From positions 48,524 through 112,523 of IMG/VR virus record IMGVR_UViG_3300009175_000009: a stretch of DNA of 64,000 nt; one strand, written 5' to 3'. The translations under genes were made by a program, and so were the position numbers. This DNA is from a virus. Taxonomy: Duplodnaviria > Heunggongvirae > Uroviricota > Caudoviricetes. The notes beneath the pieces were generated by a model. It searched no databases. It saw only the letters and a program-made list of their open reading frames with translations, and was not told where the DNA came from. This document shows, one piece after another, positions 3,939 to 57,020 of the stretch (positions are counted from its first letter, which is position 1; every line of letters begins with the position of its first letter).

Positions 3939-3958
3939 GCAAGCCTGCGGGCTTGCCG
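3939..3958 (+). terminator. GC hairpin GCAAGCC-tgcg-GGCTTGC (no U-tract) immediately before promoter-like motif
   Basis: perfect 7-bp stem / 4-nt loop directly after the stop of the 3484 gene. Confidence 0.3.
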
Positions 3959-3965
3959 TGTCTGG
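3958..3965 (+). promoter_or_regulatory. GTGTCTGG upstream motif (candidate phage promoter core) before DNA polymerase
   Basis: cGTGTCTGG + GGAGACTACAGGAGG; 26 nt before ATG. Confidence 0.45.
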
Positions 3966-3990
3966 TGGAGACTACAGGAGGAAAGTAACA

Positions 3991-6630
3991 ATGGGCGACG
4001 GTAAGTTTTTCACCAGAATAGACCTGAAGGCCCCGACAACGGGGAGGGTCAAGCCGCGGACGACTGGCCGCGACGAGGCGTACTATAACGAGAGGGGCTG
4101 CGACGCATGCCCGCTGGTCGATACCTGCGGTGGAATCGAGGATTCCCAGGTGAAGCCATCGGGAACGTCGCGGCCCCTCATCTACGTTCTGGGCGAAGCC
4201 CCAGGCAAAGATGAGGCTGAAGCGGGTGAACCGTTTGTTGGCAAGGCGGGCCAAGAGCTACGCCGCCATCTGCCCGATATCAGTATCTGTAGATTCAACA
4301 ACCCGGTGCGAGCACGGCCCGAGAACAACCGTGTGCCGACGATGTCCGAGGTGGAGTCATGCCGACAGCACCTCGTGGCTGATATCGAACGCACCAAGCC
4401 TGCGGCAATCCTTGCCTGCGGAGCAACTGCCCTGAGTTGGTTCATCGGCGGTGAGCCACGAATCACAACGTGGCGTGGGCGTCGCCTGCCCGTGCAGGTA
4501 GGGAGTCATCGGTGCTGGATGTATCCGGTGATGCATCCGTCCTTTATCATACGGCAGGGCGGTGACAAGGGTGGACCCGACCGCGAGGCTCGCCAGCATG
4601 CCGTCATGTTCAAGCACGATATCAAGCGGTGTTTCGCCGAGACCAAGAAGGGTATCGACCTGGGTGACCTGCCCTGGAACATCGATGCTCTGGAGGATGG
4701 CGTGGAACTGGCGACGCCCAAGCTCGGCGTCAAGTGGGTGGTGAAGATGCTAGAGGACGCCGCGAAGGCGAAGATCTGCGGCCTCGACCTGGAAACCAAC
4801 CGCGTGCGTCCCTACGCCAGCGGATCCCGAATTCTGAGCATGGCCATCAGCACGCCCAAGACGGCGTTTGCATTCCCGATAGGCCACAGTGATGCGTGGT
4901 GGTCGGCAGAGGACGAGATCGTACTGACGAGTGCCATCCGAGGATTCCTGCTAACCAAGATGATGAAGGTTGTCCACAACGCCAGCTTCGATATGGAGTG
5001 GCTGCTGCGGTTCTACGGCGTGCAAATCCTGAAGGATGATCTGTGGAATACGTGGGGTTGCACGCAGAACCAAGCGTACACCCTCGACGAACGCAAAGAG
5101 GACAGGATGCAAAGCCTCGATAGCCTGTGCCTGGAACGCTTGGGCACGCGGCTGAAGAAGTACAGCGACGTCGATGCCAAGCGTGGTGAGGTGGCCGAGA
5201 TCGGGAAGCTCCTGCGGTACAACGCCCTTGATGCTAAGTGCCATAGGCTTCTGTACGAAGAGCAGAACCGGGCACTGAAAGCGACGGGTATGCTGAACAC
5301 GTATCTCGATCATGTTCGTCGCGTACCGTTCCTCGTCTTGATGCAGCACAAGGGCGTTCCCGTCAGCCAGCCGGTGGTCGAGGAACTGCTGACAGACACT
5401 AACACCAAGATCAGGTTGGTAACGCAATCCGCCCTTGATACGCCCGAGGCTCATCAGTATCGCAATACATGGGGCACGCCGTTCATCATCAACGGTAAGG
5501 GCAGCCGCGAATGCCTGGAGAAGGTGTTCGGGCACATCGAAGCCCTGTACCGCAAGGACGCCAACGGCGAGGAAGTTTTCACGACCGATAGCAGCGTATT
5601 CAGCACTATTGATTCGCCACTGGCCCACAGTATCAGCGAGTTCCGCGAGTGGACGAAGATACGCGATACTTATCTTCTGCCCATGCGTGCCGGTGCGGGT
5701 AGCTTGGTTTACGAGGACGGCAATCTGCATGCCAACTTCAATGGGACGTTCACCGATACCGGGCGGCTGTCGTCTGACGGCCCGAATATGCAGAACTTTC
5801 CCAAGCGTGAACACGCCGAGGTGCGGAAGATGGTATCGGCCCCTGAAGGCTGGCTCATTGTATCCGCCGATATGAAGCAACTGGAAGTCTGCGTGGCGGC
5901 CCAAATGTCGGGCGACAAGCGGTTGCTGAAGGCTGTCCGCGAACGGGCCGACATTCACATGAAGTACGCGATCATGCTCAGCGAGGGCGTGCCGTTGTAT
6001 TTGGAACTGGTCGGTCACGGTGATATCAAGAAGGCACGCTCGGCGATCAAGAGCCTGATCACCTTCCCGTTTCTGTACGGTGCCATCCATACGACTGCCT
6101 CCCGCAACGTTCTGGCCAGCATGTCACAGTTCGACCGCGACAGGGCCGAAAGCGTCCGCAAGAAGGTGGAGAGAACCTGCGAGGACATCGAAAAGGAATT
6201 CTGGATTGAGTATCGTGATGTCAAGGCATGGCAGAACAAGCTGATGTCGGACTACGAGAAGAACGGCTATGTCACCTGCATGAACGGGCGTCGCCGCCGC
6301 GGGCCGCTGTCGATCAACCAGATCGCTAATACGCCTATTCAGGGCAGTGCCAGCGACCTTGTGGTGGACGCCGGCAATCGGCTGGCTCAGAAGGGCCTGC
6401 GGGACAATAACATGGCCCTGGTGATGAATATGAATATTCACGACGACCTGACGACCTTCGCCAAGAAGGAGGCCGCCGACGACGTGATGGCCGAAATGGT
6501 TGAAACCATGTTGCACCCCGGTTACGAGAACTGGGACATCAAGGCATGCCCGCTGGGCGTGGAGGTTTCTATCGGTTCCAACTGGTCGAATCAGAAGGCT
6601 ATCGGGACGTGGTATAGCGACGAAGCCTGA
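3991..6630 (+). CDS. family-A DNA polymerase with N-terminal family-4 uracil-DNA-glycosylase-like domain and 3'-5' exonuclease domain
   Basis: UDG4 motifs CDACPL, GEAPGKDE, PFVGKAG; exo motif DLETN; PolA motif A SADMKQLEV, motif B RSAIKSLITFPFLYG, motif C IHDDL; RBS GGAGGAAAG before ATG 3991. Confidence 0.9.
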   Translation: MGDGKFFTRIDLKAPTTGRVKPRTTGRDEAYYNERGCDACPLVDTCGGIEDSQVKPSGTSRPLIYVLGEAPGKDEAEAGEPFVGKAGQELRRHLPDISICRFNNPVRARPENNRVPTMSEVESCRQHLVADIERTKPAAILACGATALSWFIGGEPRITTWRGRRLPVQVGSHRCWMYPVMHPSFIIRQGGDKGGPDREARQHAVMFKHDIKRCFAETKKGIDLGDLPWNIDALEDGVELATPKLGVKWVVKMLEDAAKAKICGLDLETNRVRPYASGSRILSMAISTPKTAFAFPIGHSDAWWSAEDEIVLTSAIRGFLLTKMMKVVHNASFDMEWLLRFYGVQILKDDLWNTWGCTQNQAYTLDERKEDRMQSLDSLCLERLGTRLKKYSDVDAKRGEVAEIGKLLRYNALDAKCHRLLYEEQNRALKATGMLNTYLDHVRRVPFLVLMQHKGVPVSQPVVEELLTDTNTKIRLVTQSALDTPEAHQYRNTWGTPFIINGKGSRECLEKVFGHIEALYRKDANGEEVFTTDSSVFSTIDSPLAHSISEFREWTKIRDTYLLPMRAGAGSLVYEDGNLHANFNGTFTDTGRLSSDGPNMQNFPKREHAEVRKMVSAPEGWLIVSADMKQLEVCVAAQMSGDKRLLKAVRERADIHMKYAIMLSEGVPLYLELVGHGDIKKARSAIKSLITFPFLYGAIHTTASRNVLASMSQFDRDRAESVRKKVERTCEDIEKEFWIEYRDVKAWQNKLMSDYEKNGYVTCMNGRRRRGPLSINQIANTPIQGSASDLVVDAGNRLAQKGLRDNNMALVMNMNIHDDLTTFAKKEAADDVMAEMVETMLHPGYENWDIKACPLGVEVSIGSNWSNQKAIGTWYSDEA

Positions 6631-6648
6631 ACATGATATTCCGTAGCC

Positions 6649-6656
6649 GTGTCTAG
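6649..6656 (+). promoter_or_regulatory. GTGTCTAG + ATAGGCATGGGAG motif
   Basis: 22 nt upstream of ATG 6678. Confidence 0.45.
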
Positions 6657-6677
6657 ATAGGCATGGGAGTAACAACC

Positions 6678-7711: not shown

Positions 7712-7968
7712 AAGTTATCTTAGGATATTCCGATGACCGTACCGACAGCGTGAATCAGGACTCCCCGCCGCGGATCGGTGAAGGTGTCCAGATAGACGGT
7801 GATAAAAGAAACTACCTCGTGGCCGATGTCGTCCACGTATACAGCAGAGACCAATACGGGCAATTGCGGCATGTAACCGTTGTCGCTGAACTTAAGGAGA
7901 TACCCAATGGCGGAACGCCGCAAACTGACACGCAACACGCAGGAATCGTTGATACCGGCCAAGGCTGA
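7708..7968 (+). CDS. hypothetical protein (3' end overlaps clamp-loader start by ~60 nt)
   Basis: ORF with ATGA overlap upstream. Confidence 0.35.
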   Translation: MKVILGYSDDRTDSVNQDSPPRIGEGVQIDGDKRNYLVADVVHVYSRDQYGQLRHVTVVAELKEIPNGGTPQTDTQHAGIVDTGQG

Positions 7969-8929
7969 GAAGCCTGCACCATCGCCCGAAGCGGACTTTT
8001 GTAACATCTACCGTCCCGGCACGTTCGATGATATCCTCGGCCACGAGTCTATCAGTACCAGCGTCAAGGCAGTTCTGGATTCACGAAGCAAACGATGCTT
8101 CGTGTTCACCGGGCCGAGCGGCCTGGGCAAGACCACGTTCTCCCGCGCTATCAGGAATTATGTGTGCGGCGGCAACGACCTGCTCATGGACTACAAGGAG
8201 GTCGACGGCCCGGTCTACAGCAGTGCCGAGAAGGCCCGCGAACTGGTCGAGTGGATGCGGTACAAGCCCATGATCGCCGGCGGCAAGAAGCTGATCTGCG
8301 TGGACGAGGCACATGCTTTGTCGGGGCAGGCCTGGCAGTGCCTGCTGAAGTCAGCCGAGGAGCCGCCACCCTACGGGTACTGGATCTTCTGCACCACGGT
8401 CAGTGGCAAGGTGCCGGCCACCATCATGACCCGCGGAGCGAGCTACAATCTCGAACCGCTGGATGCCAAGACCCTGTTCGTCCTGCTGCAAATCGTGAAC
8501 GAAGAGCAGAAGCTGAACCTCGACGACGATATCCTTGATCTTATTGCCCACGAGTCGGACGGCAGTCCGCGTATGGCCTTAACGAATCTCGACAAGTGTC
8601 GAACTGCCGAGGATCGCCGCGAGGCAGCGGTGCTGTTGCAGGGTGCGTATGAGAACCCCGACCTGCGAGAGCTATGCCTTGCCATGAGCAAGGGCGGAAT
8701 CTCCTGGGAGAAGGCCATGAAGGTGCTAGGCGGCCTGAGCAACCTCGACCCCGAGGGCATCCGCATCCAGATCGTGCAGTACTTCGCGTCCATCGTCCGC
8801 AACGCCAAGAACCCAGCCGCGGCTGGTGCGGCCATCGAGGTGATGGACTGCTTCCTGCCGGGGCCGCTTTACTCTGCCAACAAACATGCCGAACTGTACG
8901 TCATGCTGGCCCGCGTACTGCTGAAATGA
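7907..8929 (+). CDS. clamp loader ATPase (DnaX / RFC small-subunit-like AAA+)
   Basis: IYRPGTFDDILGHE, Walker A GPSGLGKTT, DEAH, sensor KSAEEPPPYGYWIFCTT…TIMTRG; RBS AAGGAGA; N-terminus MAERRKLTRN carries the Arg tag. Confidence 0.8.
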   Translation: MAERRKLTRNTQESLIPAKAEKPAPSPEADFCNIYRPGTFDDILGHESISTSVKAVLDSRSKRCFVFTGPSGLGKTTFSRAIRNYVCGGNDLLMDYKEVDGPVYSSAEKARELVEWMRYKPMIAGGKKLICVDEAHALSGQAWQCLLKSAEEPPPYGYWIFCTTVSGKVPATIMTRGASYNLEPLDAKTLFVLLQIVNEEQKLNLDDDILDLIAHESDGSPRMALTNLDKCRTAEDRREAAVLLQGAYENPDLRELCLAMSKGGISWEKAMKVLGGLSNLDPEGIRIQIVQYFASIVRNAKNPAAAGAAIEVMDCFLPGPLYSANKHAELYVMLARVLLK

Positions 8930-9369
8930 TCAACAGCCTTACTGCTATCGAATGGACTCGCGTGCGGGCGTTCTGCCGGGACAAACGCCCGGATGAGATT
9001 ACACCAAACGCCTTGTACCGGGCGGCACGTGGTTTGAAGGCTGGTAGCCGGAACACGAACATGGTGACCGATAGCATCATGCTGGACGCTGTGCGTATGT
9101 GGTGCGTGAAGCCCGAACCTCCCAAGGAGAAACCTGTGCCGAAGCACTTATACATTACCGTGACTGGCCCCGCGATGTCGGGGAAGTCGACTGTCGTTGA
9201 GGTGATCGCTCAGGCTCTGGCTCGTGCTGGGTTGAAGTGCGATGTGAATTACGGGGATGACGGTCAGCCAACATCACCGTTGTCCCGACGCATTGATGCC
9301 ATGAAGATTGCCGCACCGAATATCACTATTAACCAACGGCAGACCCAGCGTGAGCCTTCCAAAGATTAA
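8926..9369 (+). CDS. small P-loop NTPase-like protein
   Basis: ITVTGPAMSGKSTVV Walker-A-like; ATGA overlap with clamp loader stop. Confidence 0.45.
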   Translation: MINSLTAIEWTRVRAFCRDKRPDEITPNALYRAARGLKAGSRNTNMVTDSIMLDAVRMWCVKPEPPKEKPVPKHLYITVTGPAMSGKSTVVEVIAQALARAGLKCDVNYGDDGQPTSPLSRRIDAMKIAAPNITINQRQTQREPSKD

Positions 9370-10207
9370 GACCGTCGTGCCTTGGTTCGGATCCGCGAGA
9401 ACGGTTGCCGAACGCATCGGTGAGCATCTGACCGGCTTCAAGTGGGTGGGTATACCGTTCTGCGGCGGATTGTCGGAGGTGCTGTACATCCAGGCCCGAT
9501 CCATCGTCTGCAATGATATGCACCGGCACATGATCAACCTCGCCCAGGTGCTGAAGGACGCGACGCTGGGACCGGCCATGATCGAAAGTCTGCGGGACGA
9601 ACTGTTCCATCCGGAGACGCTGGCACACGCTCAGGCTACCTCGGCTGACACGGACAATGATCAGTTGATTCCTATGGGTGCCCGCGCGCTGAACTACGAG
9701 GCTGCGAGGCAGTACTTCATCGCCTGTTGGATGGGCCGCAGTGGGAATGCTGGCGGCGACAGGGAGTTCACGGGCAACCTGTCGGTGCGGTGGAACGCGA
9801 ACGGTGGTGATTCTAATACGCGGTATCGCTCCGCCGTCGAGAGCCTGGCTGCGTGGCGGAAGGTCATCCAGCGATGTAACTTCACGTGTATGGACTGCTT
9901 CGAGTTTCTAGAGACCTGCGAGGATGATCCCGAGCACGCCATCTACTGCGACCCGCCGTGGCCCGAAGATGGTGATGTGTATAGGCACAAGTTCACGCGA
10001 GAACATCATACGCGGCTGGCCCAAATCCTGACGCGGTTCCAGAACGCACGCGTGGTGGTACGAATCAACACGTGTTCATTAGTGGATGAGTTGTACCCTC
10101 GTGGGTTGTGGAATTGGAATCAGCAAACGAGTCGCACGCAGGGCAACAATGATAAGGTAGAGGTGATTTTGGTTTATCGACCCCGAAGAAAAATTCAACG
10201 TGTCTAG
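9350..10207 (+). CDS. dam: DNA N6-adenine methyltransferase (Dam / D12 class)
   Basis: PWFGSAR…FCGGLS (motif I region) and YCDPPW (DPPY motif IV); start uncertain (TTG 9308 or GTG 9350). Confidence 0.7.
   Translation: MSLPKIKTVVPWFGSARTVAERIGEHLTGFKWVGIPFCGGLSEVLYIQARSIVCNDMHRHMINLAQVLKDATLGPAMIESLRDELFHPETLAHAQATSADTDNDQLIPMGARALNYEAARQYFIACWMGRSGNAGGDREFTGNLSVRWNANGGDSNTRYRSAVESLAAWRKVIQRCNFTCMDCFEFLETCEDDPEHAIYCDPPWPEDGDVYRHKFTREHHTRLAQILTRFQNARVVVRINTCSLVDELYPRGLWNWNQQTSRTQGNNDKVEVILVYRPRRKIQRV
10200..10207 (+). promoter_or_regulatory. GTGTCTAG + TGTAGGCAGAGGAG motif
   Basis: 22 nt upstream of ATG 10229. Confidence 0.45.
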
Positions 10208-10228
10208 TGTAGGCAGAGGAGAACGGTT

Positions 10229-10738
10229 ATGCCAACCAACGAACGAACGACAACGCGAAGCAACCTTCGCATCGACAAGCACGCCCTGGATCGCGAGGTC
10301 TGCGAGCAGCCGGAGAAATCACTGAATGCCGGCCAGGAAGCTGCGAGGCTCGCCTCGGTGCGTGATTTTGCGAAGGACAGAATGAAGGTGGTCGCAGCCG
10401 AACGTGCCCTTGCTATCCGCGAGGAACTGACCGCCGAGGGTGGACGTGTTACGGAGGCTCAGATCGATGCTCGTCTCACGACAGACTCCGAACGAATCGA
10501 TGCACATCACGAGTATATTCGAGCTGAACGTGACGCCGCGATGGCTGAGGCCGAACGTGATGCATGGAAAGAACGAGGCTACATGCTCAAGTCTCTCGGC
10601 GATCTGTACGCCGCAGGCTATTGGGCCAACGCAAGCCTCGCCGGTGACCGACGTGCCGCCGAAGAACGTGCAGGTGACGAGGCCCGCCAAGCCGTGGCGG
10701 ACCAGCGACGTCGCATGAACAGCACCTCGCGAGAATGA
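10229..10738 (+). CDS. hypothetical coiled-coil protein
   Basis: ORF preceded by GTGTCTAG motif plus GAGGAGAA RBS. Confidence 0.5.
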   Translation: MPTNERTTTRSNLRIDKHALDREVCEQPEKSLNAGQEAARLASVRDFAKDRMKVVAAERALAIREELTAEGGRVTEAQIDARLTTDSERIDAHHEYIRAERDAAMAEAERDAWKERGYMLKSLGDLYAAGYWANASLAGDRRAAEERAGDEARQAVADQRRRMNSTSRE

Positions 10739-10759
10739 TCGCGGAAGCCAACGGCAGAT

Positions 10760-10767
10760 GTGTTTAG
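10760..10767 (+). promoter_or_regulatory. GTGTTTAG + TGTAGGAG motif (variant)
   Basis: 77 nt upstream of SSB-like gene. Confidence 0.35.
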
Positions 10768-10843
10768 TGTAGGAGTAGCAAGCGGGACGATAAGGCGACC
10801 CGTAACGCTGGAACCAAGAACCTGTAACCAATGAGGTGAACCC

Positions 10844-12987: not shown

Positions 12988-12995
12988 GTGTCTAG
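12988..12995 (+). promoter_or_regulatory. GTGTCTAG motif
   Basis: ends the 0.85-kb gene-poor region, 16 nt before ATG 13011. Confidence 0.4.
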
Positions 12996-13010: not shown

Positions 13011-13169
13011 ATGAACTGGTTTTTAGACGTATGCGACGAGGCGGAGAAAGTTCACAAGATTTGGACTTTCCCGTTCATCATTTTGACCGCACCCGGAATG
13101 TTGTATGTCTTCTTCATAGGACTGTGCATACGGGGCATCAGGAAGGTTAGATCATGGCGAAGAAAATAG
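13011..13169 (+). CDS. small membrane peptide (52 aa, MNWFLDVCDEAEKVHKIWTFPFIILTAPGMLYVFFIGLC…)
   Basis: ATG 15 nt after the GTGTCTAG motif with GAGG RBS; below the track's size cut-off. Confidence 0.3.
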   Translation: MNWFLDVCDEAEKVHKIWTFPFIILTAPGMLYVFFIGLCIRGIRKVRSWRRK

Positions 13170-15579: not shown

Positions 15580-16140
15580 ATGGCTCAAGGCTGCCGCTGT
15601 CTGCCGGGATGTAGAACCCGGAGTAACTACGTTTGCACGCGGCGGTTCGTGGCTACATCGACGACCGGCGACGAGGTGGCCAGTAAGTATTCCGAGGTGA
15701 AGTGCCTTGCCTGCGGCGGCAAATGGCGAACCGACGCAGTCTACGTCGAGAAGCTGCGAAACTACCGCGAGCGCAAATACCGCAGGATGACCGATGATCA
15801 AATACTACAACTGATCGAGGAAGGTCATCTCAAGGTCAATCCGATAACCGGCGTGGTTCGTAAGCACCGCAAGGTTTGTCACGAGTGGACGAAGCAGTGG
15901 GTCATCCTCAAGCAGGATTTAGACCGTAATGGTTACCCCAGCGTCCGCATCTACTGGAACGGTCACCGCAAGGGTGCTATGGTTCACAGATTAGTTTACA
16001 TGGCCGTTCGCCGAAAACTAATACCGGATGGTTACGATGTAGATCATCGAGATAAGAATAGGGCGAACTGTTCTTATAGGAATCTTAGGCTGCGAACCAT
16101 AGCCGCGAACCGTGGTAGGGTGGACGATGTCCCATTTTGA
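15580..16140 (+). CDS. HNH homing endonuclease
   Basis: HNH motif GYDVDHRDKNRANCSYRNLRL; N-terminal Cys cluster. Confidence 0.8.
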   Translation: MAQGCRCLPGCRTRSNYVCTRRFVATSTTGDEVASKYSEVKCLACGGKWRTDAVYVEKLRNYRERKYRRMTDDQILQLIEEGHLKVNPITGVVRKHRKVCHEWTKQWVILKQDLDRNGYPSVRIYWNGHRKGAMVHRLVYMAVRRKLIPDGYDVDHRDKNRANCSYRNLRLRTIAANRGRVDDVPF

Positions 16141-17388: not shown

Positions 17389-17838
17389 ATGTTTAGTCTG
17401 TTTGTTCCGAAGAATGATCTTATCCTTGATAGTTTTCAGAGCATGGCAGTTTGGGCACATGAGTTGGTAGAGTTCGGGGTTTTTATAGGCCCTGACCGTG
17501 TTATCACCAGTTCTATGACGTCCGCCGCCGATAGCAACAATATGATCTGCTTGTAATATTTCAGGATGTTTGTTGTACCCACATTTGCAGCAACATCCGC
17601 CGAGCATTTGTAGTACAGCAACCCGTACCTGACGTCGCCACTCGTTTTTCCTTTTTGTGCAGCACGTTTTACATCTATACGAACGGTTGCGTAGTCCCGA
17701 AAATTCGGTGGTCGGTTGAGGAACGCCGCAGAGGTTACACGTGATATCCATAGCAGACACTATACCACGTATCTGCAACGCGTACAACGCCACCGTGTCT
17801 GGACTGGTTGTGTATGACGTACCGTTCCCCGACTTCAA
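17359..17838 (-). CDS. HNH endonuclease
   Basis: Cys4 pairs plus LQADHIVAIGGG…DNTVRAYKNPELYQLMCPNCHALK. Confidence 0.75.
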   Translation of the reverse strand: MKSGNGTSYTTSPDTVALYALQIRGIVSAMDITCNLCGVPQPTTEFSGLRNRSYRCKTCCTKRKNEWRRQVRVAVLQMLGGCCCKCGYNKHPEILQADHIVAIGGGRHRTGDNTVRAYKNPELYQLMCPNCHALKTIKDKIILRNKQTKHSTPKATPAA

Positions 17839-18059
17839 GGTGCGTCTGGCCCGCGAAGTGCCGGGTGATTTAGCAACAACCCTGTGGATGCGATGATGAA
17901 ATGGTTTAGTTTAAGTTGGTGGCTATACCTGTTCGACGGCTGCACGGGTTGGACGAATTTCTGGTGCCGCGTGCGAAATCATCCAGGCGGCGTGGTGTGG
18001 TATAACGTGAACGCCCTGGAGCCTGACATGCGCTGTAATAACTGTGGAGAAGACTTAGG

Positions 18060-19799: not shown

Positions 19800-19807
19800 G
19801 TGTCTGT
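19800..19807 (+). promoter_or_regulatory. GTGTCTGT + TAGTAC motif (variant) followed by hairpin CGGGTGgacagCACCCG
   Basis: 130 nt upstream of sbcD. Confidence 0.3.
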
Positions 19808-21850: not shown

Positions 21851-21858
21851 GTGTCTGG
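21851..21858 (+). promoter_or_regulatory. GTGTCTGG + ATAGCATAAG motif
   Basis: upstream of ATG 21892. Confidence 0.4.
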
Positions 21859-21891
21859 ATAGCATAAGAAATAACCTGTAAGGTGTCGGCA

Positions 21892-25323: not shown

Positions 25324-25659
25324 ATGAAGTGGTTTGCTGGTTTGATTTGTGCCATGATGCTGCTTTGCGGAACGGCGAATGCGGCGTGGCAAGAGGTGTG
25401 GGACGAGACGACATACAACGTCACCGTCTATCCGGCCCCGGTGTGGGTGGAATCAACGTATGAGATCACCGTGGTTCCTGCTCCCGAGTGGCGGAAGTGC
25501 GGCGAGTGCGGTGTCTGGCATCAGGTACAGCCGCCGTCCCGTATCGAGCAGCGAAACTGCAAGAAGCAAGTTCAGCCGCCGTCTTACATCGAGCAACGTC
25601 ACGGATATACCCGCCGCGTGGTGTGGGTGGACGACCCGATCATCTACCGCACGTGGTAG
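25324..25659 (+). CDS. secreted protein with internal peptide repeats
   Basis: signal peptide MKWFAGLICAMMLLCGTANA; repeats VQPPSRIEQRNCKKQVQPPSYIEQRHG. Confidence 0.5.
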   Translation: MKWFAGLICAMMLLCGTANAAWQEVWDETTYNVTVYPAPVWVESTYEITVVPAPEWRKCGECGVWHQVQPPSRIEQRNCKKQVQPPSYIEQRHGYTRRVVWVDDPIIYRTW

Positions 25660-29628: not shown

Positions 29629-30108
29629 ATGACCAAAAAACCAACAAGATCTGAAGTACTGCAAAAGTTCGGCACGGCGATCTCCGTGCTGGGCAAAGAC
29701 GCTGTAGTGATTCATCTCAGCAAGATCACCTATCGCGAGCGTGAGATACTCAAGCTGCGGTTCGGTTTTGGCGATGGCTACTGCTACACATTTCAGGAGG
29801 TGGCCCACATCTTCAAGACCACCGTCGCCCGCATCCGCCAGATCGAGGAGAAGGCCATCCGTAAGATGTGCGCCCTGATGAACGAGGTCAAAGTACCGGA
29901 AATCCAAAGCATGAACATCGACGAGGCCAAGCGAGCCAAAATAGCGTTAGCTGAATCGGTGGGCACGCTGGTGCGAGAGTTCGAGCTACGGACCGGCCTG
30001 ACCGTGCTGAGCATATCGCTGGGCCGCAAGGAATATTCAAGCTCCGAGATGCCGGCGGGAGTGACCAAGTCGCTGCTGACCGGAGTTCACGTATCCGTGA
30101 GGATATGA
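29629..30108 (+). CDS. sigma-70 region-4-containing protein (putative phage sigma/transcription factor)
   Basis: REREILKLRFGFGDGYCYTFQEVAHIFKTTVARIRQIEEKAIRKM matches the sigma70_r4 HTH. Confidence 0.55.
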   Translation: MTKKPTRSEVLQKFGTAISVLGKDAVVIHLSKITYREREILKLRFGFGDGYCYTFQEVAHIFKTTVARIRQIEEKAIRKMCALMNEVKVPEIQSMNIDEAKRAKIALAESVGTLVREFELRTGLTVLSISLGRKEYSSSEMPAGVTKSLLTGVHVSVRI

Positions 30109-30968
30109 TGGCAATCCGCCGCCCGGATCGATCATTGTTCGATGTCGCTACCACACGGGCCAGCCGTCAAGTCTATCTCGGCATCGACGGTACGAACTGG
30201 CTGCACACTATCTACCATGCCAACAACGGGCACGATGTGCTGGAGACTGTGGTGCGCCGCATCGACGCCCTGACGCGGAACCTACAGCCGAAGCTGGTGG
30301 TGGTGTGCCTCGACCGCAGGAGCTTCCGGCATGATCTCTATCCGCCCTATAAGGCCAAACGGGGCGAACGCCCGCACGACGAGAACCTGCACTTCGTACT
30401 GGAGAATGCTCTGGGCGTGCTGAAGGACTGGGCCGTGGTGGTTCAGGTAAACGGTTTTGAAGCGGATGATTGCCTAGCTGCCTTAGCCGCCAGGGCGGTC
30501 GCCGTGGGCAGTGATGCCGTGCTCGCGTCGCCCGACAAAGACCTCAACCAGTGCTTGGTTGCCGACCGCGTAACGATCATCAAGAAGTTCCACCTGTTGG
30601 GATCGGGTATCACAAACATTGAGTGGATGACGCCGCAGCTTCTTCTCGATCAGAAGGGCCTGACGCCGCGTCAGTGGATTGATTATCAGACCCTCGCTGG
30701 TGATTCTGGAGACGGTGTGCCTGGTTGTCCGGGATGGGGCGAGAAGACGGCCAGCGAGGCTATTCGGCAGTGGGGCAGCATCGACGCTATTTACGATAAC
30801 ATCGATTCAGTTAAGGTCAGCGCGTCCCGCAGGGCCGCCCTGCTGAAGTTCCGCGATGATGGACTGGCAATCATGCGGCAACTGGTTACGCTCCGCACCG
30901 ATGTGGACGAAGTAAAGCGAATCTTCGTGTCTAGACGTCGTATAGGAGCAAGTCATGCCCGAACGTAG
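30105..30968 (+). CDS. 5'-3' exonuclease / flap endonuclease (Pol I 5'-nuclease-like)
   Basis: LGIDGTNWLH, EADDCLAALA, SPDKDLNQ, H3TH GDSGDGVPGCPGWGEKTA. Confidence 0.8.
   Translation: MMAIRRPDRSLFDVATTRASRQVYLGIDGTNWLHTIYHANNGHDVLETVVRRIDALTRNLQPKLVVVCLDRRSFRHDLYPPYKAKRGERPHDENLHFVLENALGVLKDWAVVVQVNGFEADDCLAALAARAVAVGSDAVLASPDKDLNQCLVADRVTIIKKFHLLGSGITNIEWMTPQLLLDQKGLTPRQWIDYQTLAGDSGDGVPGCPGWGEKTASEAIRQWGSIDAIYDNIDSVKVSASRRAALLKFRDDGLAIMRQLVTLRTDVDEVKRIFVSRRRIGASHART
30927..30934 (+). promoter_or_regulatory. GTGTCTAG + ACGTCGTATAGGAGCA motif (inside FEN gene 3' end)
   Basis: 20 nt before ATG 30955. Confidence 0.4.
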
Positions 30969-31884
30969 ACGCATCCAGACACCGCCTGTAGTTCGACGAC
31001 GTATGAACACAGGTGGTCCGCCACCCGTTCCGCCGTCCCTACGCCCCGAACCGATGCGTGCCGGTCAATTCGGTATGAGGATCGCGAGCCCTGACCCGGG
31101 CAACATCAACGTCGACTTGATGAACCGATTCATCAACATCAACGGTGAGCCGGCGACGGTTAGGAACTGTACAGCTTATGTGTGTAACGGTCAGGTGGTG
31201 CTGAACATGGAGGTGGCCTACCCGCCAGGGCAGCGTGCCGGTATCGCCGGGCTGTGGGTTCCACCGGATAACGTACCGCTTCGCGGACAGGAGATCAGCG
31301 GCGTAGCCTTTGACGAGGCCGTAAACCTCGACAGGCGGCTTCAGTGGCATAGTACGGAAACGGGCCGCGTATCTTCCGCAAGGCCCAACGTGAGCAACGT
31401 GCCGCGTTCAGGCGGGCGGGCAGCCCCGTTACCGCTGGGTGGCCCCGAGAACCTAGCGTTCCACATGGGAAACGGTCAATCGGGAGTCATCTGCGAGGCC
31501 CAACCGCGATGCCCCGCCATCGGTGAAGATTTGCGTGGCGTGGCCCGCGGGCGAGTCATGGACATGTCCCATGCCCCCAACCGGGAACGCCGCGAGATGA
31601 TATACTACATCCGCGAGCGAGAACTGCTGATCGCCTTCTACCGCGAGGATCCCGACTACATCGTGGTCGGCATCGACCCCGAATTGCCGCACGGGGCTGT
31701 CATACGCAGCGTTCACCACGAGCCGCATCGTGCGGCGTTTGCGTTCATTGTATATCATCCATCGTTCGATATCGTACCCGATAGCCAATCCCCGCCCAAC
31801 GCTGGCGTAATGCCGTTTCAGTACCGCACCCTGACGCGAGCCGGTGACGGGAGATATGATATCGGAAATGCACCGCTTGAGTAG
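30955..31884 (+). CDS. hypothetical protein with N-terminal MPERRRIQT tag
   Basis: ORF; GTGTCTAG motif plus TATAGGAG upstream. Confidence 0.5.
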   Translation: MPERRRIQTPPVVRRRMNTGGPPPVPPSLRPEPMRAGQFGMRIASPDPGNINVDLMNRFININGEPATVRNCTAYVCNGQVVLNMEVAYPPGQRAGIAGLWVPPDNVPLRGQEISGVAFDEAVNLDRRLQWHSTETGRVSSARPNVSNVPRSGGRAAPLPLGGPENLAFHMGNGQSGVICEAQPRCPAIGEDLRGVARGRVMDMSHAPNRERREMIYYIRERELLIAFYREDPDYIVVGIDPELPHGAVIRSVHHEPHRAAFAFIVYHPSFDIVPDSQSPPNAGVMPFQYRTLTRAGDGRYDIGNAPLE

Positions 31885-31891
31885 TGTCTGG
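31884..31891 (+). promoter_or_regulatory. GTGTCTGG motif
   Basis: 46 nt before lipoprotein ATG 31938. Confidence 0.4.
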
Positions 31892-32426: not shown

Positions 32427-32434
32427 GTGTCTGG
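32427..32434 (+). promoter_or_regulatory. GTGTCTGG motif with 150-nt leader
   Basis: leader contains hairpin GGCCTTCGGGCC. Confidence 0.35.
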
Positions 32435-38622: not shown

Positions 38623-38801
38623 CCCGCCGGCAGCTACAAATCCTGCGGGATACGGCCAAGTACGGCTGGGACATGGCCTATATCTGGGACAGTGTCTACG
38701 GACTGCGATTCAGGCAGATGATACGGGTGTCTCGATTTGAGTCGCGGTGTCTGGATGAGTTGCTGCAACGCCGAACCGTGGATATGTGTTGTACTGTTTG
38801 A
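38619..38801 (+). CDS. hypothetical small protein
   Basis: ORF. Confidence 0.3.
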   Translation: MTRRQLQILRDTAKYGWDMAYIWDSVYGLRFRQMIRVSRFESRCLDELLQRRTVDMCCTV

Positions 38802-38930: not shown

Positions 38931-39368
38931 GTGGTTGAACGACAGAAAATAGCAACGAAGCGATGTGCTAAATGTGGGTACACTAAACCGATTACGGGCA
39001 ACTTCTGTATGTCACGCGGTCGGCCCGTATCCACGTGTCTATCATGCCGAAGAGAGGCTGCGAGGATTTATGTAAGAACGAGCTATGCACGGGAATCATG
39101 TCGTATACGTTATCGGAAGCGTAGCGAGAACATGAAGTTACGTCTACTTGCTGTGCTCGGTGTTGATAGATGCTCGTGTGGGGAAACGCATATTGCGTGT
39201 TTAGATTTTCATCATGTTACTGGCGAGAAAGTTGATAGCGTTAGGCACATGATAAATACTAGTGTTCCCATTGATCTAATCATAGCCGAGGTTCGGAAGT
39301 GCATAGTGCTTTGTTCAAACTGTCATCGCAAAGTACATTACCGTGATAGAAGTGCAGTGTCTGGTTAA
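38931..39368 (+). CDS. HNH endonuclease
   Basis: CxxC…CLDFHHVTGEK…CSNCHRKVH. Confidence 0.7.
   Translation: MVERQKIATKRCAKCGYTKPITGNFCMSRGRPVSTCLSCRREAARIYVRTSYARESCRIRYRKRSENMKLRLLAVLGVDRCSCGETHIACLDFHHVTGEKVDSVRHMINTSVPIDLIIAEVRKCIVLCSNCHRKVHYRDRSAVSG
39357..39364 (+). promoter_or_regulatory. GTGTCTGG motif overlapping HNH stop
   Basis: 84 nt before GTG 39449. Confidence 0.35.
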
Positions 39369-41685: not shown

Positions 41686-41832
41686 ATGCGGATCGTAGCT
41701 ATTCTGGTTCTGTTAGTATGTGCGGGTTGTGCAGGATCGAAGGTGGTGACGCGGTACGCGATCACCGACACTCATCAGGACGGCCACCCCGATATCGTAG
41801 CGACCACCGTCGCAGTTGAGGTGGCTCGCTAA
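41686..41832 (+). CDS. small lipoprotein (48 aa)
   Basis: MRIVAILVLLVCAGC lipobox; AAGGATG RBS; below track cut-off. Confidence 0.35.
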   Translation: MRIVAILVLLVCAGCAGSKVVTRYAITDTHQDGHPDIVATTVAVEVAR

Positions 41833-41859
41833 ATCATCCAGGCGTCATACGAACCCGAC

Positions 41860-41867
41860 GTGTCTGG
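41860..41867 (+). promoter_or_regulatory. GTGTCTGG motif before SPFH gene
   Basis: 45 nt before ATG 41913; GGAGG RBS. Confidence 0.4.
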
Positions 41868-43400: not shown

Positions 43401-43426
43401 TGCCCTCATTTAGCATGTGTCTGGTA

Positions 43427-43434
43427 CAGCATAA
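43427..43434 (+). promoter_or_regulatory. GTGTCTGG + TACAGCATAAGGAGAA motif
   Basis: 12 nt before ATG 43447. Confidence 0.45.
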
Positions 43435-43446
43435 GGAGAACAAACC

Positions 43447-44578: not shown

Positions 44579-44830
44579 ACTCTTCGCAGGACTGGCACGA
44601 CGGCTACGTTCAGGGCCAGCTTGACTACGCCGAGGCGTTCCTGCGGGCGACCGCGGCGATGCGGGAGAAGGCGGCGAAAGCGAAGGTGAAGCCGTGAGTT
44701 GCTATCGGCTGTGGTTTAATGTACCATGAGTCTAGTCGAGCATCGCCAATGCCCAAATCATGTCCGCCACGCCCTGTCTGCGTTTGGCGATGCTCCAGGG
44801 CCTCTGGCGGACTGCATAAGGAGCATCGCC

Positions 44831-45376
44831 ATGCTAGAACGACGACGAATTCAAACAAGTCCTGAAGAAATTAGGAAGGCTAGAAAGAGGTACACAAATC
44901 GCCAGTGTTACCTACGGAATCGTGAATCTATAAATATGCGTAGTGCAAAAAGATGGGCAGAACTTTGGAAGAATGATCCAGACAAGGCAAGGGCGATAAT
45001 TGGCAAGAGTCAACGCAAGCATCGAGATCGTCGTCACGTAGATGTTTCCATAGCGTTAGAGTGTATGATGCGAAACGCACGTGCTCGTAGTGCCAGACGT
45101 AACCTGGATTGCAACATATCGCTAGAATACCTGCGTCAGGTTTATGATTTACAGGGCGGTGTTTGTGCTATAACGGCTATGCCGTTTGAGCAAACTACTG
45201 ACTACGGAAAGATGTCGTTAGATCGTATTGATCCATCGTGTGGTTACGTTCAGGGTAACATTAGAATTGTTTGGTTACTAGTGAATAACGCTATGGGTGT
45301 CTGGGGTGAGGGGCCTTTACTTCGAGTTGCAGAGGCGATTGTGGAACGGAATTTAGTAAGGAATCAACCTAAATGA
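44831..45376 (+). CDS. putative freestanding (homing) endonuclease-like protein; N-terminal MLERRRIQT tag
   Basis: AAGGAG RBS; C-terminal SLDRIDPSCGYVQGNIRIVW resembles phage HNH/AP2-type endonuclease DNA-binding modules; lies between truncated and intact copies of one gene. Confidence 0.4.
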   Translation: MLERRRIQTSPEEIRKARKRYTNRQCYLRNRESINMRSAKRWAELWKNDPDKARAIIGKSQRKHRDRRHVDVSIALECMMRNARARSARRNLDCNISLEYLRQVYDLQGGVCAITAMPFEQTTDYGKMSLDRIDPSCGYVQGNIRIVWLLVNNAMGVWGEGPLLRVAEAIVERNLVRNQPK

Positions 45377-46007: not shown

Positions 46008-46222
46008 TGCAAGTTGGACCGAAGCAGTGCGACGATGGGCCGTATTGCTGGGGCTGCGTTCATAACCTGGACAGCCACGGCGGGTTCTCCTGTCATCATC
46101 CAGATCGTGAATACGAGAGGCTGCCCTGGGATAATCATACGCCGCAGCGGTGTCCAGTATTGAAAGCACCATGCACGACATCGACCAAGCTACTGCCGAG
46201 ATCATCTTCCACGGGCTCATAA
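46007..46222 (+). CDS. small Cys/His-rich protein
   Basis: CDDGPYCWGCVHN…CHHPD. Confidence 0.3.
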   Translation: MQVGPKQCDDGPYCWGCVHNLDSHGGFSCHHPDREYERLPWDNHTPQRCPVLKAPCTTSTKLLPRSSSTGS

Positions 46223-50652: not shown

Positions 50653-50833
50653 CGCAGAAGACCTGCCCCCGAAGCGACCGTGTATGCGGTGTTATCAGAC
50701 GTTCCAGCCGAAGGAAAAGTACCACACGCTGTGTCATGGCTGCCGGTCGAAGCCCATCAACCTGAGCGCACGCGAGGCTAATCTAGAGCGAGCCAAACCC
50801 CAGGGCGGGACAGTGCCTGAATCATCTCGGTGA
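50621..50833 (+). CDS. small zinc-ribbon protein
   Basis: CMRCYQ…CHGCRS. Confidence 0.35.
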   Translation: MSTDVLIEEDDAEDLPPKRPCMRCYQTFQPKEKYHTLCHGCRSKPINLSAREANLERAKPQGGTVPESSR

Positions 50834-50836
50834 GCC

Positions 50837-50844
50837 GTGTCTGG
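50837..50844 (+). promoter_or_regulatory. GTGTCTGG + TTAGGC motif abutting ATG
   Basis: ATG 50851 six nt after motif. Confidence 0.4.
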
Positions 50845-50850
50845 TTAGGC

Positions 50851-51207
50851 ATGAACCAAGGCGACACCGACTTTCTGCATAATCTACTAACCCGCCTCGT
50901 CGCGGCCAACGATGCCTATCGTAAGTCAGAGTATCGTGGCCAGATCATGCGGTTCTCCGAGGACTTCGTGCGTGGCCGCGAGGTTATGTCCGACGAAGAC
51001 GTCAAGAACCGCATTAAGCAGATACTGGAAGACAGGCAGGCGGCCTTCATGAGTCGCCGCATGCCCGACGTTGAGACTGCCACAAACGCTATGATCGCCC
51101 TGGTACGGGAACTGACGAGGCCAGTCATAGTACGCCGCCGCATGCAGACACCGCCGCCCGAACCACCTGCACCGCCGCCATCATCGCGGCCTGGCTGGGA
51201 GCTTTGA
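50851..51207 (+). CDS. hypothetical protein; C-terminal …VRRRMQTPPP… tag
   Basis: ATG immediately after GTGTCTGGTTAGGC (leaderless-like). Confidence 0.4.
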   Translation: MNQGDTDFLHNLLTRLVAANDAYRKSEYRGQIMRFSEDFVRGREVMSDEDVKNRIKQILEDRQAAFMSRRMPDVETATNAMIALVRELTRPVIVRRRMQTPPPEPPAPPPSSRPGWEL

Positions 51208-52480: not shown

Positions 52481-52497
52481 TATCATATTGGCGGGCC

Positions 52498-52505
52498 GTG
52501 TCCAG
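52498..52505 (+). promoter_or_regulatory. GTGTCCAG + TGTGATAGGAGG motif
   Basis: 20 nt before ATG 52526. Confidence 0.4.
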
Positions 52506-52890: not shown

Positions 52891-53070
52891 ATGACTGGCC
52901 TGCAACTTCTGCAATGGCTTGAGGCGATACCGCGGCAGGAACTGGATCAGACTCAGGTAATCCTGGAGCTTGGTCGCCTGGACGAGAACACTCTGGTTAC
53001 GGCTAAGTACTACCGTGGCACGCCTGAATCACCTCAGCCGCAGCCGACGATCTATTTGATTCACAAATGA
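52891..53070 (+). CDS. hypothetical small protein (59 aa)
   Basis: AAGGTG RBS. Confidence 0.3.
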   Translation: MTGLQLLQWLEAIPRQELDQTQVILELGRLDENTLVTAKYYRGTPESPQPQPTIYLIHK

Positions 53071-53083
53071 TATTGAACCTCCC

Positions 53084-53091
53084 GTGTCTGG
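53084..53091 (+). promoter_or_regulatory. GTGTCTGG + ATAAGGCATAGGAGAA motif (best full-length example)
   Basis: intergenic between the 52891 and 53237 genes. Confidence 0.45.
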
Positions 53092-53236
53092 ATAAGGCAT
53101 AGGAGAATCACTATCGTGACCAATATTCTTGTAACCAGCGGCCCCGTACACGCTTTTACGACGGCCAGCTTTGGGAACCCGTGGCAAAGCGGTTGATGGC
53201 GGGCGTACTGAAGATCACTTTCCGAGTAAAGGACGT

Positions 53237-55053: not shown

Positions 55054-55105
55054 ATGGGTGGCGTTACTAAACAAGAGATCCACGATTAATTTGTAAGGCG
55101 AAATC

Positions 55106-55664: not shown

Positions 55665-56512
55665 CGGGTATGCTCGTGATCACGAAGGCGGGCAAGGTGA
55701 TGATGAAGGTCATCGCCGACAGCCTGGGCCACAACGTCAATGCCCTGGTTATGTACATCAGGCCGCTTCTGGTCGGTGGACGCGTGCCGTCAGTCTACGA
55801 TGTCGAGCTACGATGTGCCTGGTCCAACTTTGGCGGGCCGCGAAACTTGGTGATCATAACCGAGACTGAGATCTGTTTCTCCGATGGTCGTGATGCTCTC
55901 GTGAATGAGAACTACCCAAACCCACGTTATCGCAATACGTTTGCTGACCCACGATTTAACCCGCGGTGTGATCGTGGCACTGTAGAAAACCTCATCGTTA
56001 TCGAGATCAATGACGTTCGGCAGCGTCCGGAGCGACTCCGAATCACGAGAACAGTCGAACGACGCAAAATGACGTCATGCTTCACCAGACGGCGGTCGGA
56101 TTCATATAGCCAGATACTGTCGTGCGTGCTGCTGGAGGAACTGCGGCCACTGGGCGAAGCACACGCCATGATGCTGATGTCCGACCGTATGGAGCCGTCT
56201 GGCGTGCGGATCAAGGTGCGTGATACTGGAGTCATCGTGGAGAACATTCGTGCGGGCCGCGAGTCGCCCAGCACGGTCCGACGCAGCTTATCCCTGGGCA
56301 CGGTCATGCTGGTTGGCCGCAACGGAAACAACAACACTAACGTGTGGGACATCGTAATGATCGGCCTGCGACCGCCCGAGGATTGCATCGAGCTACGCCT
56401 GGCTGAATACTATGGCTGGACAGTAGACCAAGTTCGCAGCATGACTGGCCACCAACGCCGACAGTTTCTGGACTTCATCGACAATCCCGTGGGTGAAGGT
56501 GGTGAACTATGA
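55661..56512 (+). CDS. hypothetical protein
   Basis: ORF, 283 aa. Confidence 0.45.
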   Translation: MTGMLVITKAGKVMMKVIADSLGHNVNALVMYIRPLLVGGRVPSVYDVELRCAWSNFGGPRNLVIITETEICFSDGRDALVNENYPNPRYRNTFADPRFNPRCDRGTVENLIVIEINDVRQRPERLRITRTVERRKMTSCFTRRRSDSYSQILSCVLLEELRPLGEAHAMMLMSDRMEPSGVRIKVRDTGVIVENIRAGRESPSTVRRSLSLGTVMLVGRNGNNNTNVWDIVMIGLRPPEDCIELRLAEYYGWTVDQVRSMTGHQRRQFLDFIDNPVGEGGEL

Positions 56513-56555
56513 TCGTGATTGCGTCATCGTATGATGAAGCCGTCGCCACTGAAAG

Positions 56556-57020
56556 ATGACCATGCCTGAACGACGCAGGATGAGAACCGCCCCGAAGATG
56601 GCCGGGCCTGATCAGATATGCCGACATTTTCGCGGCATGTTAGAGGATCGTCCGTGTGCTATGGACATCGATATCAGGCGACTGATAGGCGGGGTTGACA
56701 TCGGCTGGGCACTGCGTGCACCGTGCCGGAAACTGAGCGACGCATCGGACTCAAACCGCGTGCCGTGTGATCATTTCGCTATGTTCACGCGGGCCGAGGG
56801 CCGAGCCAGGAACATCGAACTAATCCGTATTCTCGAACGTCATGCTATGGCCGCCGATACCGTGGATGCCTTCAGGAGCCGCCACAAACGCCAGAACGCT
56901 CAGGAGACCGTAGATTGCCCGACTGGCTGCGGCGGGCGGCTGACGCTATCGATAGCGGCTATCAACGGGCATTGCTGGGGACGATGTAGCACGCCGGGGT
57001 GTCTGGCATGGATGGAGTAA
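56556..57020 (+). CDS. hypothetical Cys-rich protein; N-terminal MTMPERRRMRT tag
   Basis: ORF. Confidence 0.45.
   Translation: MTMPERRRMRTAPKMAGPDQICRHFRGMLEDRPCAMDIDIRRLIGGVDIGWALRAPCRKLSDASDSNRVPCDHFAMFTRAEGRARNIELIRILERHAMAADTVDAFRSRHKRQNAQETVDCPTGCGGRLTLSIAAINGHCWGRCSTPGCLAWME
56999..57006 (+). promoter_or_regulatory. GTGTCTGG + CATGGATGGAG motif
   Basis: 18 nt before ATG 57025. Confidence 0.4.

Follow-up and report, generated by a model that had tools for sequence, protein, structure and literature searches.

A strand-specific GTGTCT(G/A)G element upstream of gene blocks in the replication region of an uncultivated phage, a candidate phage-specific promoter

The stretch of DNA analyzed here, referred to below as the window, comprises 64,000 nt (positions 48,524 to 112,523) of the IMG/VR record IMGVR_UViG_3300009175_000009. 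Its source is the 192.5-kb metagenomic contig k141_83342 (ENA ERZ27245846), whose 192,532 bp include a terminal overlap of 141 bp, and the window belongs to an uncultivated phage with a genome of ~192.4 kb. Because the coordinates of k141_83342 wrap around the window, this genome is circular or circularly permuted. The readable region amounted to ~79 kb out of ~192 kb, that is, the window together with 6 kb upstream and 9 kb downstream of it. The window has a G+C content of 57.5%, is coded nearly entirely on the + strand and represents the phage region for replication, recombination and nucleotide metabolism. It encodes a sliding clamp (2414–3487), a family-A DNA polymerase (polA) of 879 aa with an N-terminal UDG-like domain (3991–6630, + strand), a clamp-loader-like protein (7907–8929), a gp32-like single-stranded DNA-binding protein (SSB; 10844–12166), UvsX/RecA (13154–14347), SbcD (19938–21008), SbcC (25678–27534) and an rnh-like 5'-3' exonuclease (30108–30968), along with many orphan small open reading frames (ORFs). 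The subject of this study is a short element of this DNA-replication region, GTGTCT(G/A)G (GTGTCTRG, hereafter the core), of which ~20 same-strand copies lie just upstream of gene blocks.

The over-representation of this motif is real and well beyond chance. Exact GTGTCTGG was found 15 times in the window, 14 times on the + strand and once on the − strand, and it was the most over-represented 8-mer of the window under an order-3 Markov model (z = 11.5). In dinucleotide shuffles, 2.67 ± 1.58 copies were expected on both strands, with a maximum of 6, and the observed count was never reached. The variant GTGTCTAG occurred four times on the + strand and never on the − strand. The per-strand count proposed in the first-pass annotation of this DNA, when run on the window, gave 18 (+) versus 1 (−) for GTGTCTRG, and a position weight matrix applied at ≥12 bits gave 21 (+) versus 1 (−). 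Variants of the core are transitions (C/U, G/A), and its invariant part is GTGTC; noise is the probable explanation for GTGTCCAG at 7784 and 39888 and for the GTGTTTGG copies. Thus, the first-pass annotation was right that a motif is over-represented upstream of genes, whereas its list of copies needs amendment: the copy placed at 43427 is at 43417, the one at 19800 is an unlisted variant (GTGTCTGT), and the exact copies at 17795, 25511, 38747 and 45297, all of them in small upstream ORFs and 76–184 nt away from the following start, had been missed. It had also placed every copy on the + strand, but one exact copy is on the − strand (30975–30982; it reads CCAGACAC on the + strand) and is probably not a member of the class. 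Together with the + site GTGTCTAG at 30927, this minus-strand copy forms an inverted repeat around the Shine-Dalgarno (SD) sequence and start codon of the gene at 30955–31884.

A coding or codon artefact was ruled out, as the copies are mostly intergenic and use all three codon phases; since the intragenic copies also fall in all three phases, the motif does not represent a peptide motif. A contrasting case is CTCTGGAG, whose 10:0 strand ratio is an in-frame Leu-Glu artefact. No match in the window was found in Rfam at the gathering threshold, a tRNA scan of the window found none, and a literature string search for GTGTCTGG returned only primer sequences and 'macrophage' matches.

The position of the copies relative to genes was measured against merged independent gene calls. 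Ten of the 18 strict copies lie ≤60 nt upstream of the next start (1.86 under the null, P<5e-5) and 13 lie ≤100 nt upstream, and the median distance is 47 nt versus 280 nt for random positions. The earlier view that nearly all copies stand 6–50 nt before a start codon is therefore correct in its tendency (the ten copies within 60 nt) but not for the copies at 10760, 32427, 39357 and 53084, which are at 84–157 nt. Of 19 gaps of 25–120 nt, 9 contain a site, versus only 4 of 76 junctions between overlapping genes. A site heads 15 of the 38 tightly packed gene blocks, and one-mismatch variants stand at several further block heads (937, 19800, 20997 and 39888). These block heads and the conservation in relatives described below support the earlier proposal that the motif partitions the region into blocks resembling transcription units. 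The copies are spaced 2.7 kb apart on average over a span that runs from 6 kb upstream of the window (with L001:49 and L001:5884) to 56999, and no copy was found in the final 7 kb of the window or the 9 kb beyond it. This regional restriction makes the class look module-specific, which is consistent with one temporal transcription class.

The motif-free stretch includes a 1250-aa orphan ORF just past the window (L005:12755-16507), for which no Pfam, PHROG or NCBIfam match was found, and an intergenic region of ~866 bp that holds a perfect 15-bp tandem array (TGTAGACAGTATCTA; window 63772-63855 and L005:11366-11413). The copy number of this array varies, as six units are present in the window and three in k141_83342. 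Read on the minus strand, the unit is CTGTCTACATAGATA and is similar to the motif together with the bases that follow it (GTGTCTAGATAGG), with both invariant terminal Gs of the core replaced by C. The array may be an iteron/origin or a regulator-binding array.

To examine conservation, relatives were collected by homology searches with the polymerase, SSB and σ4 proteins. Megablast against deposited phages gave no close DNA match, and the best polymerase identity among deposited phages was ~30%; a scan of IMG/VR with polA gave no match and a JGI scan no close relative. The homology searches found only a handful of close relatives, all of them metagenomic. In three of these, with 68–79% protein identity, the element is present at orthologous positions. 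The relative L002, whose polymerase is 79% identical, has just two motif copies: GTGTCTAG lies 33 nt before the polymerase ATG, the same offset as that of the 3958 site in the window, and the second copy lies within the gene that precedes csrA, again at the orthologous position. In L006 (SSB 70%), GTGTCTAG is found 28, 30 and 78 nt before three genes that are the orthologs of those following the 6649, 10200 and 10760 sites. At the first of them (L006:498), an upstream hexameric box (see below), the core and a downstream AGGCAT are kept while the spacer is rewritten; the second (L006:3629) has 30 nt to the ATG. The SSB sites of L006 (L006:4218, 78 nt) and L007 (L007:184, 55 nt; SSB 68%) both have GTGTCTAG with the box 22 nt upstream. 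In a three-way alignment of the SSB leaders, conservation starts at the motif, and the motif-to-ATG distance is 84, 78 and 55 nt in the window, L006 and L007, respectively. In the relatives at 37–48% identity (L003, L008 and L009), no such element was found on the coding strand upstream of genes, and a scan of the distant relative L003 for a different recurrent motif revealed only coding low-complexity repeats. Taken together, conservation at orthologous places amid diverging neighbouring intergenic bases, variable distance to the ATG and absence from distant relatives indicate that the element is under selection within a narrow clade. It is not tied to ribosome-binding-site geometry and turns over at larger distances, a pattern expected of a signal co-evolving with a phage-specific reader.

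Several other features were noted in these comparisons. A CsrA-family RNA-binding regulator is encoded at 81–278 of the window and is kept in L002 (2238–2432), and the gene upstream of csrA contains a motif copy in both phages. The L002 polymerase (L002:6301-9858) is 1185 aa long versus 879 aa in the window, and its insertion could be an intein or homing element. The SSB leader (window 10768-10843; L006:4226-4295) contains a hairpin GCGGGACGAnnAGGCGACCCG that is common to the window and L006 and deleted in L007; by analogy with T4 gene 32, this hairpin could serve as an operator for autoregulation.

Nearly all information of the aligned sites resides in the 8-mer and the A/T just after it, and other positions in fixed register carry ≤0.4 bit. 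An A/T-rich triplet lies just downstream of the core, and the immediately following base is A or T at 21 of the 24 sites. In a subset of sites, TAGG, often as TAGGCAT, follows 1–3 nt after the core, and AGGCA/AGCAT occurs downstream in 6 of 24 sites versus a background of 1.4%. A subset also carries a hexamer wAT(G/C)AT upstream of the core (AT[GC]ATA is found upstream in 6 of 24 sites, again versus 1.4%), and its spacing is bimodal both in the window and in the orthologs: 11–12 bp at 6649, 46150, 50837, 52498, 53084 and the ortholog L006:498, and 20–23 bp at 31884, 41860 and 10760, with 22 bp in both SSB orthologs. By itself this box is neither enriched nor strand-biased (16 on the + strand and 28 on the − strand), and therefore only the combination of box and core matters. 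The two spacings are one helical turn apart, which argues for recognition on duplex DNA rather than on RNA. A contiguous 22-nt extension of the core, as described in the first-pass annotation, is seen in four to six copies (53084, 6649, 10200, 43417, 50837 and 21851) only. Intrinsic-terminator-like hairpins showed no association with the sites.

All individual sites described in the following are on the + strand. The best composite site (53066..53107) consists of box AATGAT (53066–53071), 12 nt, core GTGTCTGG (53084–53091), ATA, AGGCAT and AGGAGAA; the next called gene is at 53240, 156 nt away, and a 26-codon ORF from GTG 53112 is possible. The composite at 6632..6664 has box CATGAT (6632–6637), 11 nt, core GTGTCTAG (6649–6656), AT and AGGCAT (6659–6664), and with 29 nt to ATG 6678 it heads a six-gene block. 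At 46133..46157, box AATCAT (46133–46138) is separated by 11 nt from the variant core GTGTCCAG (46150–46157), 21 nt before ATG 46171, with no SD sequence between core and ATG; this site heads a 20-gene block. The composite at 50820..50852 comprises box AATCAT (50820–50825), 11 nt, core GTGTCTGG (50837–50844), TT and AGGCAT (50847–50852), and ATG 50851 lies within AGGCATG, an alternative start being GTG 50830. The fifth (52481..52505) has box TATCAT (52481–52486), 11 nt and the variant core GTGTCCAG (52498–52505), 28 nt before ATG 52526. With the longer spacing, box AATGAT (10734–10739) precedes the variant core GTGTTTAG (10760–10767) by 20 nt in the site at 10734..10767, 84 nt before the SSB ATG 10844. 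Box TATGAT (31855–31860) precedes core GTGTCTGG (31884–31891) by 23 nt at 31855..31891, where the core overlaps the stop codon of the gene at 30955–31884 and the start is ATG 31899 at 15 nt or ATG 31938 at 54 nt. Box AATCAT (41832–41837) precedes core GTGTCTGG (41860–41867) by 22 nt at 41832..41867, 53 nt before ATG 41913 of an SPFH/Band-7 protein.

Among the other sites, an intergenic GTGTCTGG at 3958..3965 precedes the polA ATG (3991) by 33 nt and is itself immediately preceded by a perfect 8-bp hairpin (3938–3957), which is not kept in L002. At 10200..10217, GTGTCTAG is followed by TGTAGGCAG, with 29 nt to ATG 10229, and the TAG of the core is the stop codon of the gene at 9350–10207. The GTGTCTAG at 12988..12995, 23 nt before ATG 13011, heads the UvsX/RecA block, and an intergenic GTGTCTGG followed by ATAGCATAAG (21851..21868), 41 nt before ATG 21892, heads a block of 11 overlapping genes. 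Within the 3' end of the 5'-3' exonuclease gene, GTGTCTAG (30927..30934) is 28 nt before ATG 30955. An intergenic GTGTCTGG at 32427..32434 heads a four-gene block, 157 nt before ATG 32584 of the TSCPD-domain gene; at 43417..43440, GTGTCTGG and the following TACAGCATAAGGAGAA are 30 nt before ATG 43447, whose gene has a third-codon-position G+C (GC3) of 0.80; and the last copy, GTGTCTGG at 56999..57006, is 26 nt before ATG 57025. Three GTGTCTGG copies are inside ORFs and of uncertain status: 17795..17802 within the small ORF 17741–17896 (89 nt before the next start), 25511..25518 within ORF 25324–25659 (167 nt before the sbcC start) and 38747..38754 in the 3' part of the small ORF 38619–38801 (184 nt before the low-GC3 ORF 38931–39368). 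Two further GTGTCTGG copies are at 39357..39364, at the 3' end of this low-GC3 ORF and 56–92 nt before the gene at 39413/39449–39859, and at 45297..45304, in the 3' end of an HNH/EndoVII-type gene (44726–45376) and 76 nt before ATG 45373.

The low-GC3 ORF 38931–39368 (+) and the HNH/EndoVII-type gene 44726–45376 (+; GC3 0.40) are both likely mobile endonuclease genes, so that the copies at 39357 and 45297 lie at the 3' ends of two such genes. Adjacent HNH genes on opposite strands at 15580–16140 (+) and 16145–16618 (-) are likely mobile endonucleases as well. Auxiliary metabolic genes (60906–62148, 967–2298 and 32584–33273) are those for AdoMet decarboxylase and spermidine synthase (polyamine synthesis), for an OMP decarboxylase–phosphoribosyltransferase fusion and for the TSCPD-domain protein. 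Genes for an amidoligase and GATase are located just upstream of the window (L001).

Candidate readers of the element were sought with PHROG among almost all window proteins and with Pfam among the ten largest; for the other genes, precomputed Pfam tables were used, and the flanks were covered as well. The 879-aa ORF 3991–6630, which has the same length as T7 RNA polymerase (RNAP), was rejected as a candidate, being the family-A DNA polymerase. TTGACA/TATAAT-like hexamers 16–18 bp apart matched the consensus at or below chance across the window, the core with its flanking bases does not fit such a promoter, and the first-pass description of the motif as a strand-specific gene-upstream signal unrelated to the σ70 consensus was upheld. 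A σ70-like excess was observed only in the 10 kb beyond the window (9 versus 3.2 expected, mostly on the non-coding strand). The best-placed σ70-like candidate is TTGACG-N16-TAAGAT at 58030-58057 (+), in an intergenic gap of the motif-free 3' part; such matches are at chance level overall.

The window does encode a stand-alone σ70 region 4 protein of 159 aa (29629..30108, + strand), with Sigma70_r4 at residues 30–80, over which it is ~50% identical to SigA/RpoD region 4.2. Its predicted fold superposes on σ region 4 at 1.0–1.8 Å, and the model shows a long helix and a β-hairpin after this region that have no PDB match. No region 2 was found in this protein, so it is not a complete σ factor, and its homologs likewise have region 4 only. 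The recognition helix reads TVARIRQIE versus TRERIRQIE in RpoD. The family consists of only four clusters, and a 57%-identical homolog on a 58.7-kb contig (ERZ1426827) has the same methyltransferase–σ4–exonuclease gene order and a recognition helix that reads TRDRIRQIE. In the window, the gene is directly upstream of the rnh-like 5'-3' exonuclease gene, the corresponding position at which T4 carries gene 33, next to its rnh-like gene. The product of T4 gene 33 is a functional mimic of σ region 4. No PHROG or Pfam match to the gp33 family was found in the readable ~79 kb. Judging from its sequence, the 29629 protein would be at most a candidate reader of a −35-like upstream box and not of the core; its position and fold represent a lead, not evidence for recognition of the motif.

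With moderate confidence, we interpret GTGTCTRG as the core of a phage-specific promoter class that would act on double-stranded DNA and drive early/middle gene blocks. Its targets would be the replication, recombination and nucleotide-metabolism blocks. At many sites the core is 23–33 nt from the ATG with the SD sequence in between; thus, if the element is a promoter, transcription must start no more than ~12 nt downstream of the core, which would make the core either a −10-region-like element or the upstream portion of a compact promoter. Its placement as a −35 or MotA-type box was rejected on the same geometry, as this puts the start at or beyond the ATG. In the proposed mechanism, the core would be bound, in the manner of a −10 region, by a phage-specified form of RNAP, either host RNAP carrying a specificity subunit from the phage or an RNAP that the phage encodes outside the readable region. 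Melting would affect the A/T-rich bases immediately 3' of the core, and transcription is predicted to start ~6–9 nt downstream, around the CA of GCAT. Counted from this start, the core would span about −15 to −8. The proximal box would then cover about −33 to −28, which is where a −35 element lies and where the 29629 protein could read it. Predicted leaders would be 8–38 nt long and begin near the SD sequence. At 50837, the ATG is exactly at the predicted start, so that the transcript may be leaderless, although GTG 50830 is an alternative start.

Two other promoter architectures were considered. The wATsAT box is −10-like; if it were a host σ70 −10 and the core were transcribed (start 4–6 nt before the core), leaders would be more comfortable, but many box-less sites would be left without a promoter and the one-turn phasing would be unexplained; the finding of no −35 or TGn also weakens this possibility. 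Inspection of the aligned sites showed no consistent upstream element for an ECF/σE-type −10 (TCTGA-like) with a GAAC −35.

Several observations weigh against a promoter. The predicted start leaves the SD sequence within a few nt of the 5' end, which would be an unusually short leader. No RNAP, σ region 2, gp55, MotA or AsiA-like protein was found in the readable ~79 kb. Only about half of the clean intergenic gaps carry a site, and four to five copies lie inside genes, with 76–207 nt to the following start. A more specific form of the promoter reading is a split σ, in which the 29629 protein, which keeps a DNA-reading helix, would take the place of host σ region 4 on the β-flap and recognize wAT(G/C)AT, while a σ2/gp55-like partner would read GTGTCTRG as a −10-type element; we regard this form as rather improbable.

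The main rival explanation is an element acting at the RNA level in 5' untranslated regions, where GUGUCURG would be read by an RNA-binding protein or endoribonuclease of the phage or host. As RNA (GUGUCUGG), the element would be bound or cleaved instead of starting transcripts, serving as a processing site, a 5' stabilizer hairpin (GUGUCU-loop-AGGCAU) or a translational operator in polycistronic mRNAs. Such a role would suit an element that is strand-specific and lies upstream of SD sequences, its transition variants would be tolerable to a wobble-pairing partner, and an RNA-binding protein of the CsrA family is encoded by the phage (81–278). It would also suit the observation, a further point against the promoter, that GUGUCU/AGGCAU stems of ≥6 bp are found in 7 of 24 sites versus 2.5 expected (P≈0.008); with G·U pairs, the hairpin is possible at 53084, 6649, 50837, 10200 and L006:498. 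However, the pairing is absent at most sites and not kept in three of four orthologous pairs (polA, 10200/L006:3629 and SSB), mean fold z-scores are unremarkable, and the SD sequence or AUG follows the motif at anything from 13 to >150 nt, with different distances in orthologs. A general RNA hairpin, weakly enriched and not kept in orthologs, was rejected accordingly. A CsrA binding site was rejected too: the GGA that CsrA needs is not conserved, the base after the core being T in about half of the sites and the GTGTCTAG variants having no GGA. Moreover, helical-turn phasing of the upstream box is meaningful only on duplex DNA. On balance, we consider an RNA-level element unlikely. Another rival of the promoter is an operator for a phage DNA-binding regulator situated beside other promoters. 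A helix-turn-helix protein that binds as a monomer would be compatible with an asymmetric site of 8 bp and ~14 bits, the reverse complement CCAGACAC includes the GACA of the −35 consensus TTGACA, and the phage has a helix-turn-helix protein in its σ region 4 protein with the altered recognition helix; the resemblance of the tandem 15-mers at 63772–63855 to the motif points in the same direction, whereas their terminal C residues in place of both Gs of the core do not. But no other promoter signal accompanies the sites, as σ70-like hexamers are at chance and the wATsAT box is present at a minority of sites, and the strict single orientation with a position immediately upstream of the SD sequence fits a core promoter better. 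We therefore give the operator a low probability.

The first-pass annotation had suggested a contiguous T7-like promoter of ~22 nt, GTGTCTGG(A/T)-TAGGCATAGGAG, initiating at GGAG, so that transcripts would begin with the SD sequence. A string of ~20 nt ending in CATAGGAG or similar is indeed shared by the best copies (53084, 43417, 6649 and 10200) and resembles that of T7 promoters (CTATAGGGAGA), and the ~113 kb outside the readable region could encode the polymerase. Against this, conservation extends over ~9 bp and not ~20, with the flat flanks described above, and good sites (3958, 12988, 31884, 32427, 39357, 41860 and 56999) have no extension. The GGAG proposed as the initiating element is simply the SD sequence found before most genes, at variable distance from the core; a phased upstream box, present here in a subset of sites, is not a feature of T7-type promoters; and the suggested search for a single-subunit RNAP or an additional σ factor found none among the proteins of the ~79 kb examined with Pfam and PHROG. 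A T7-like promoter thus appears clearly improbable. Still less probable, to the point that we attach very little weight to it, is a DNA signal unrelated to expression (Chi-like, replication/packaging or a restriction/modification target) or a compositional/coding artefact. Over-representation and strand bias of an 8-mer are typical for signals of the Chi and KOPS type, and RecA/UvsX, SbcCD and methyltransferases are encoded here. However, the copies are in short intergenic gaps a few tens of nt before start codons, their position relative to genes is kept in relatives, associated flanking elements are present, all codon phases are used and shuffles never reach the observed count.

If the element is a promoter, it would provide an immediate transcription-unit map for a jumbo-class phage lineage without a cultured or annotated relative, and it would mark the genes of one temporal class. 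The motif (core, or core plus box) would be a defined DNA bait for finding the specificity factor, and the stand-alone σ region 4 protein makes one specific mechanism testable. A split σ, if true, would establish a new promoter class as well as a novel kind of σ appropriation, in which region 4 is provided in trans. It should be noted that a conserved promoter motif is, by itself, something to be expected in a phage, so the finding is of value for annotation and as a lead rather than as a surprise.

Comparison with known systems revealed partial likeness to several of them. T7/T3/SP6 promoters are likewise repeated same-strand elements directly upstream of genes, and the best copies here end in CATAGGAG, reminiscent of TATAGGGAGA; they differ in having ~20 conserved bp versus ~9 here, and the variable GGAG distance, the phased upstream box and the lack of such a polymerase in the 79 kb also set the two apart. 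The promoters of the phiKZ/AR9 non-virion RNAP are short motifs near the start in jumbo phages and independent of the host σ70 consensus, as here, but those motifs are AT-rich, and the split β/β' homologs and replication proteins of these phages were not seen in the ~79 kb. Non-σ70 elements are also read by phage specificity subunits on host RNAP, such as SPO1 gp28 and gp33/34 and phiEco32 gp36. Split σ factors supply regions 4 and 2 on separate polypeptides, as in the two-subunit σ SigO-RsoA of B. subtilis. The stand-alone region 4 protein of the window would similarly need a separate region 2, whereas the 11–12 bp box-to-core spacing and the sequences seen here are not known from any of these phage and split σ systems. 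T4 middle promoters (a MotA box at −30 with a σ70 −10, under AsiA/MotA) are asymmetric phage-specific boxes upstream of replication-gene units as well, in which normal −35 logic is replaced and the target genes belong to the same functional class; a −30 placement here, in contrast, would push the −10 and start onto or past the SD sequence or ATG, no TAnnnT is found 11–13 bp downstream, and no MotA/AsiA homolog was detected in the readable region. As for T4 late promoters (TATAAATA; gp55, gp33 and the gp45 clamp), the core GTGTCTRG is unrelated and G+C-rich, it stands before replication genes instead of structural genes, a subset of sites has an upstream box, and gp55/gp33 homologs were not detected in the ~79 kb, while a clamp is present (2414–3487). 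Like the T4 late promoters, however, the element described here is a compact 8-bp signal without an obligatory −35 hexamer; the phage carries replication proteins of the same type as T4 (clamp, clamp loader, gp32-like SSB, UvsX and gp46/47-like SbcCD), and its σ region 4-type module lies beside an rnh-like gene, as T4 gene 33 does.

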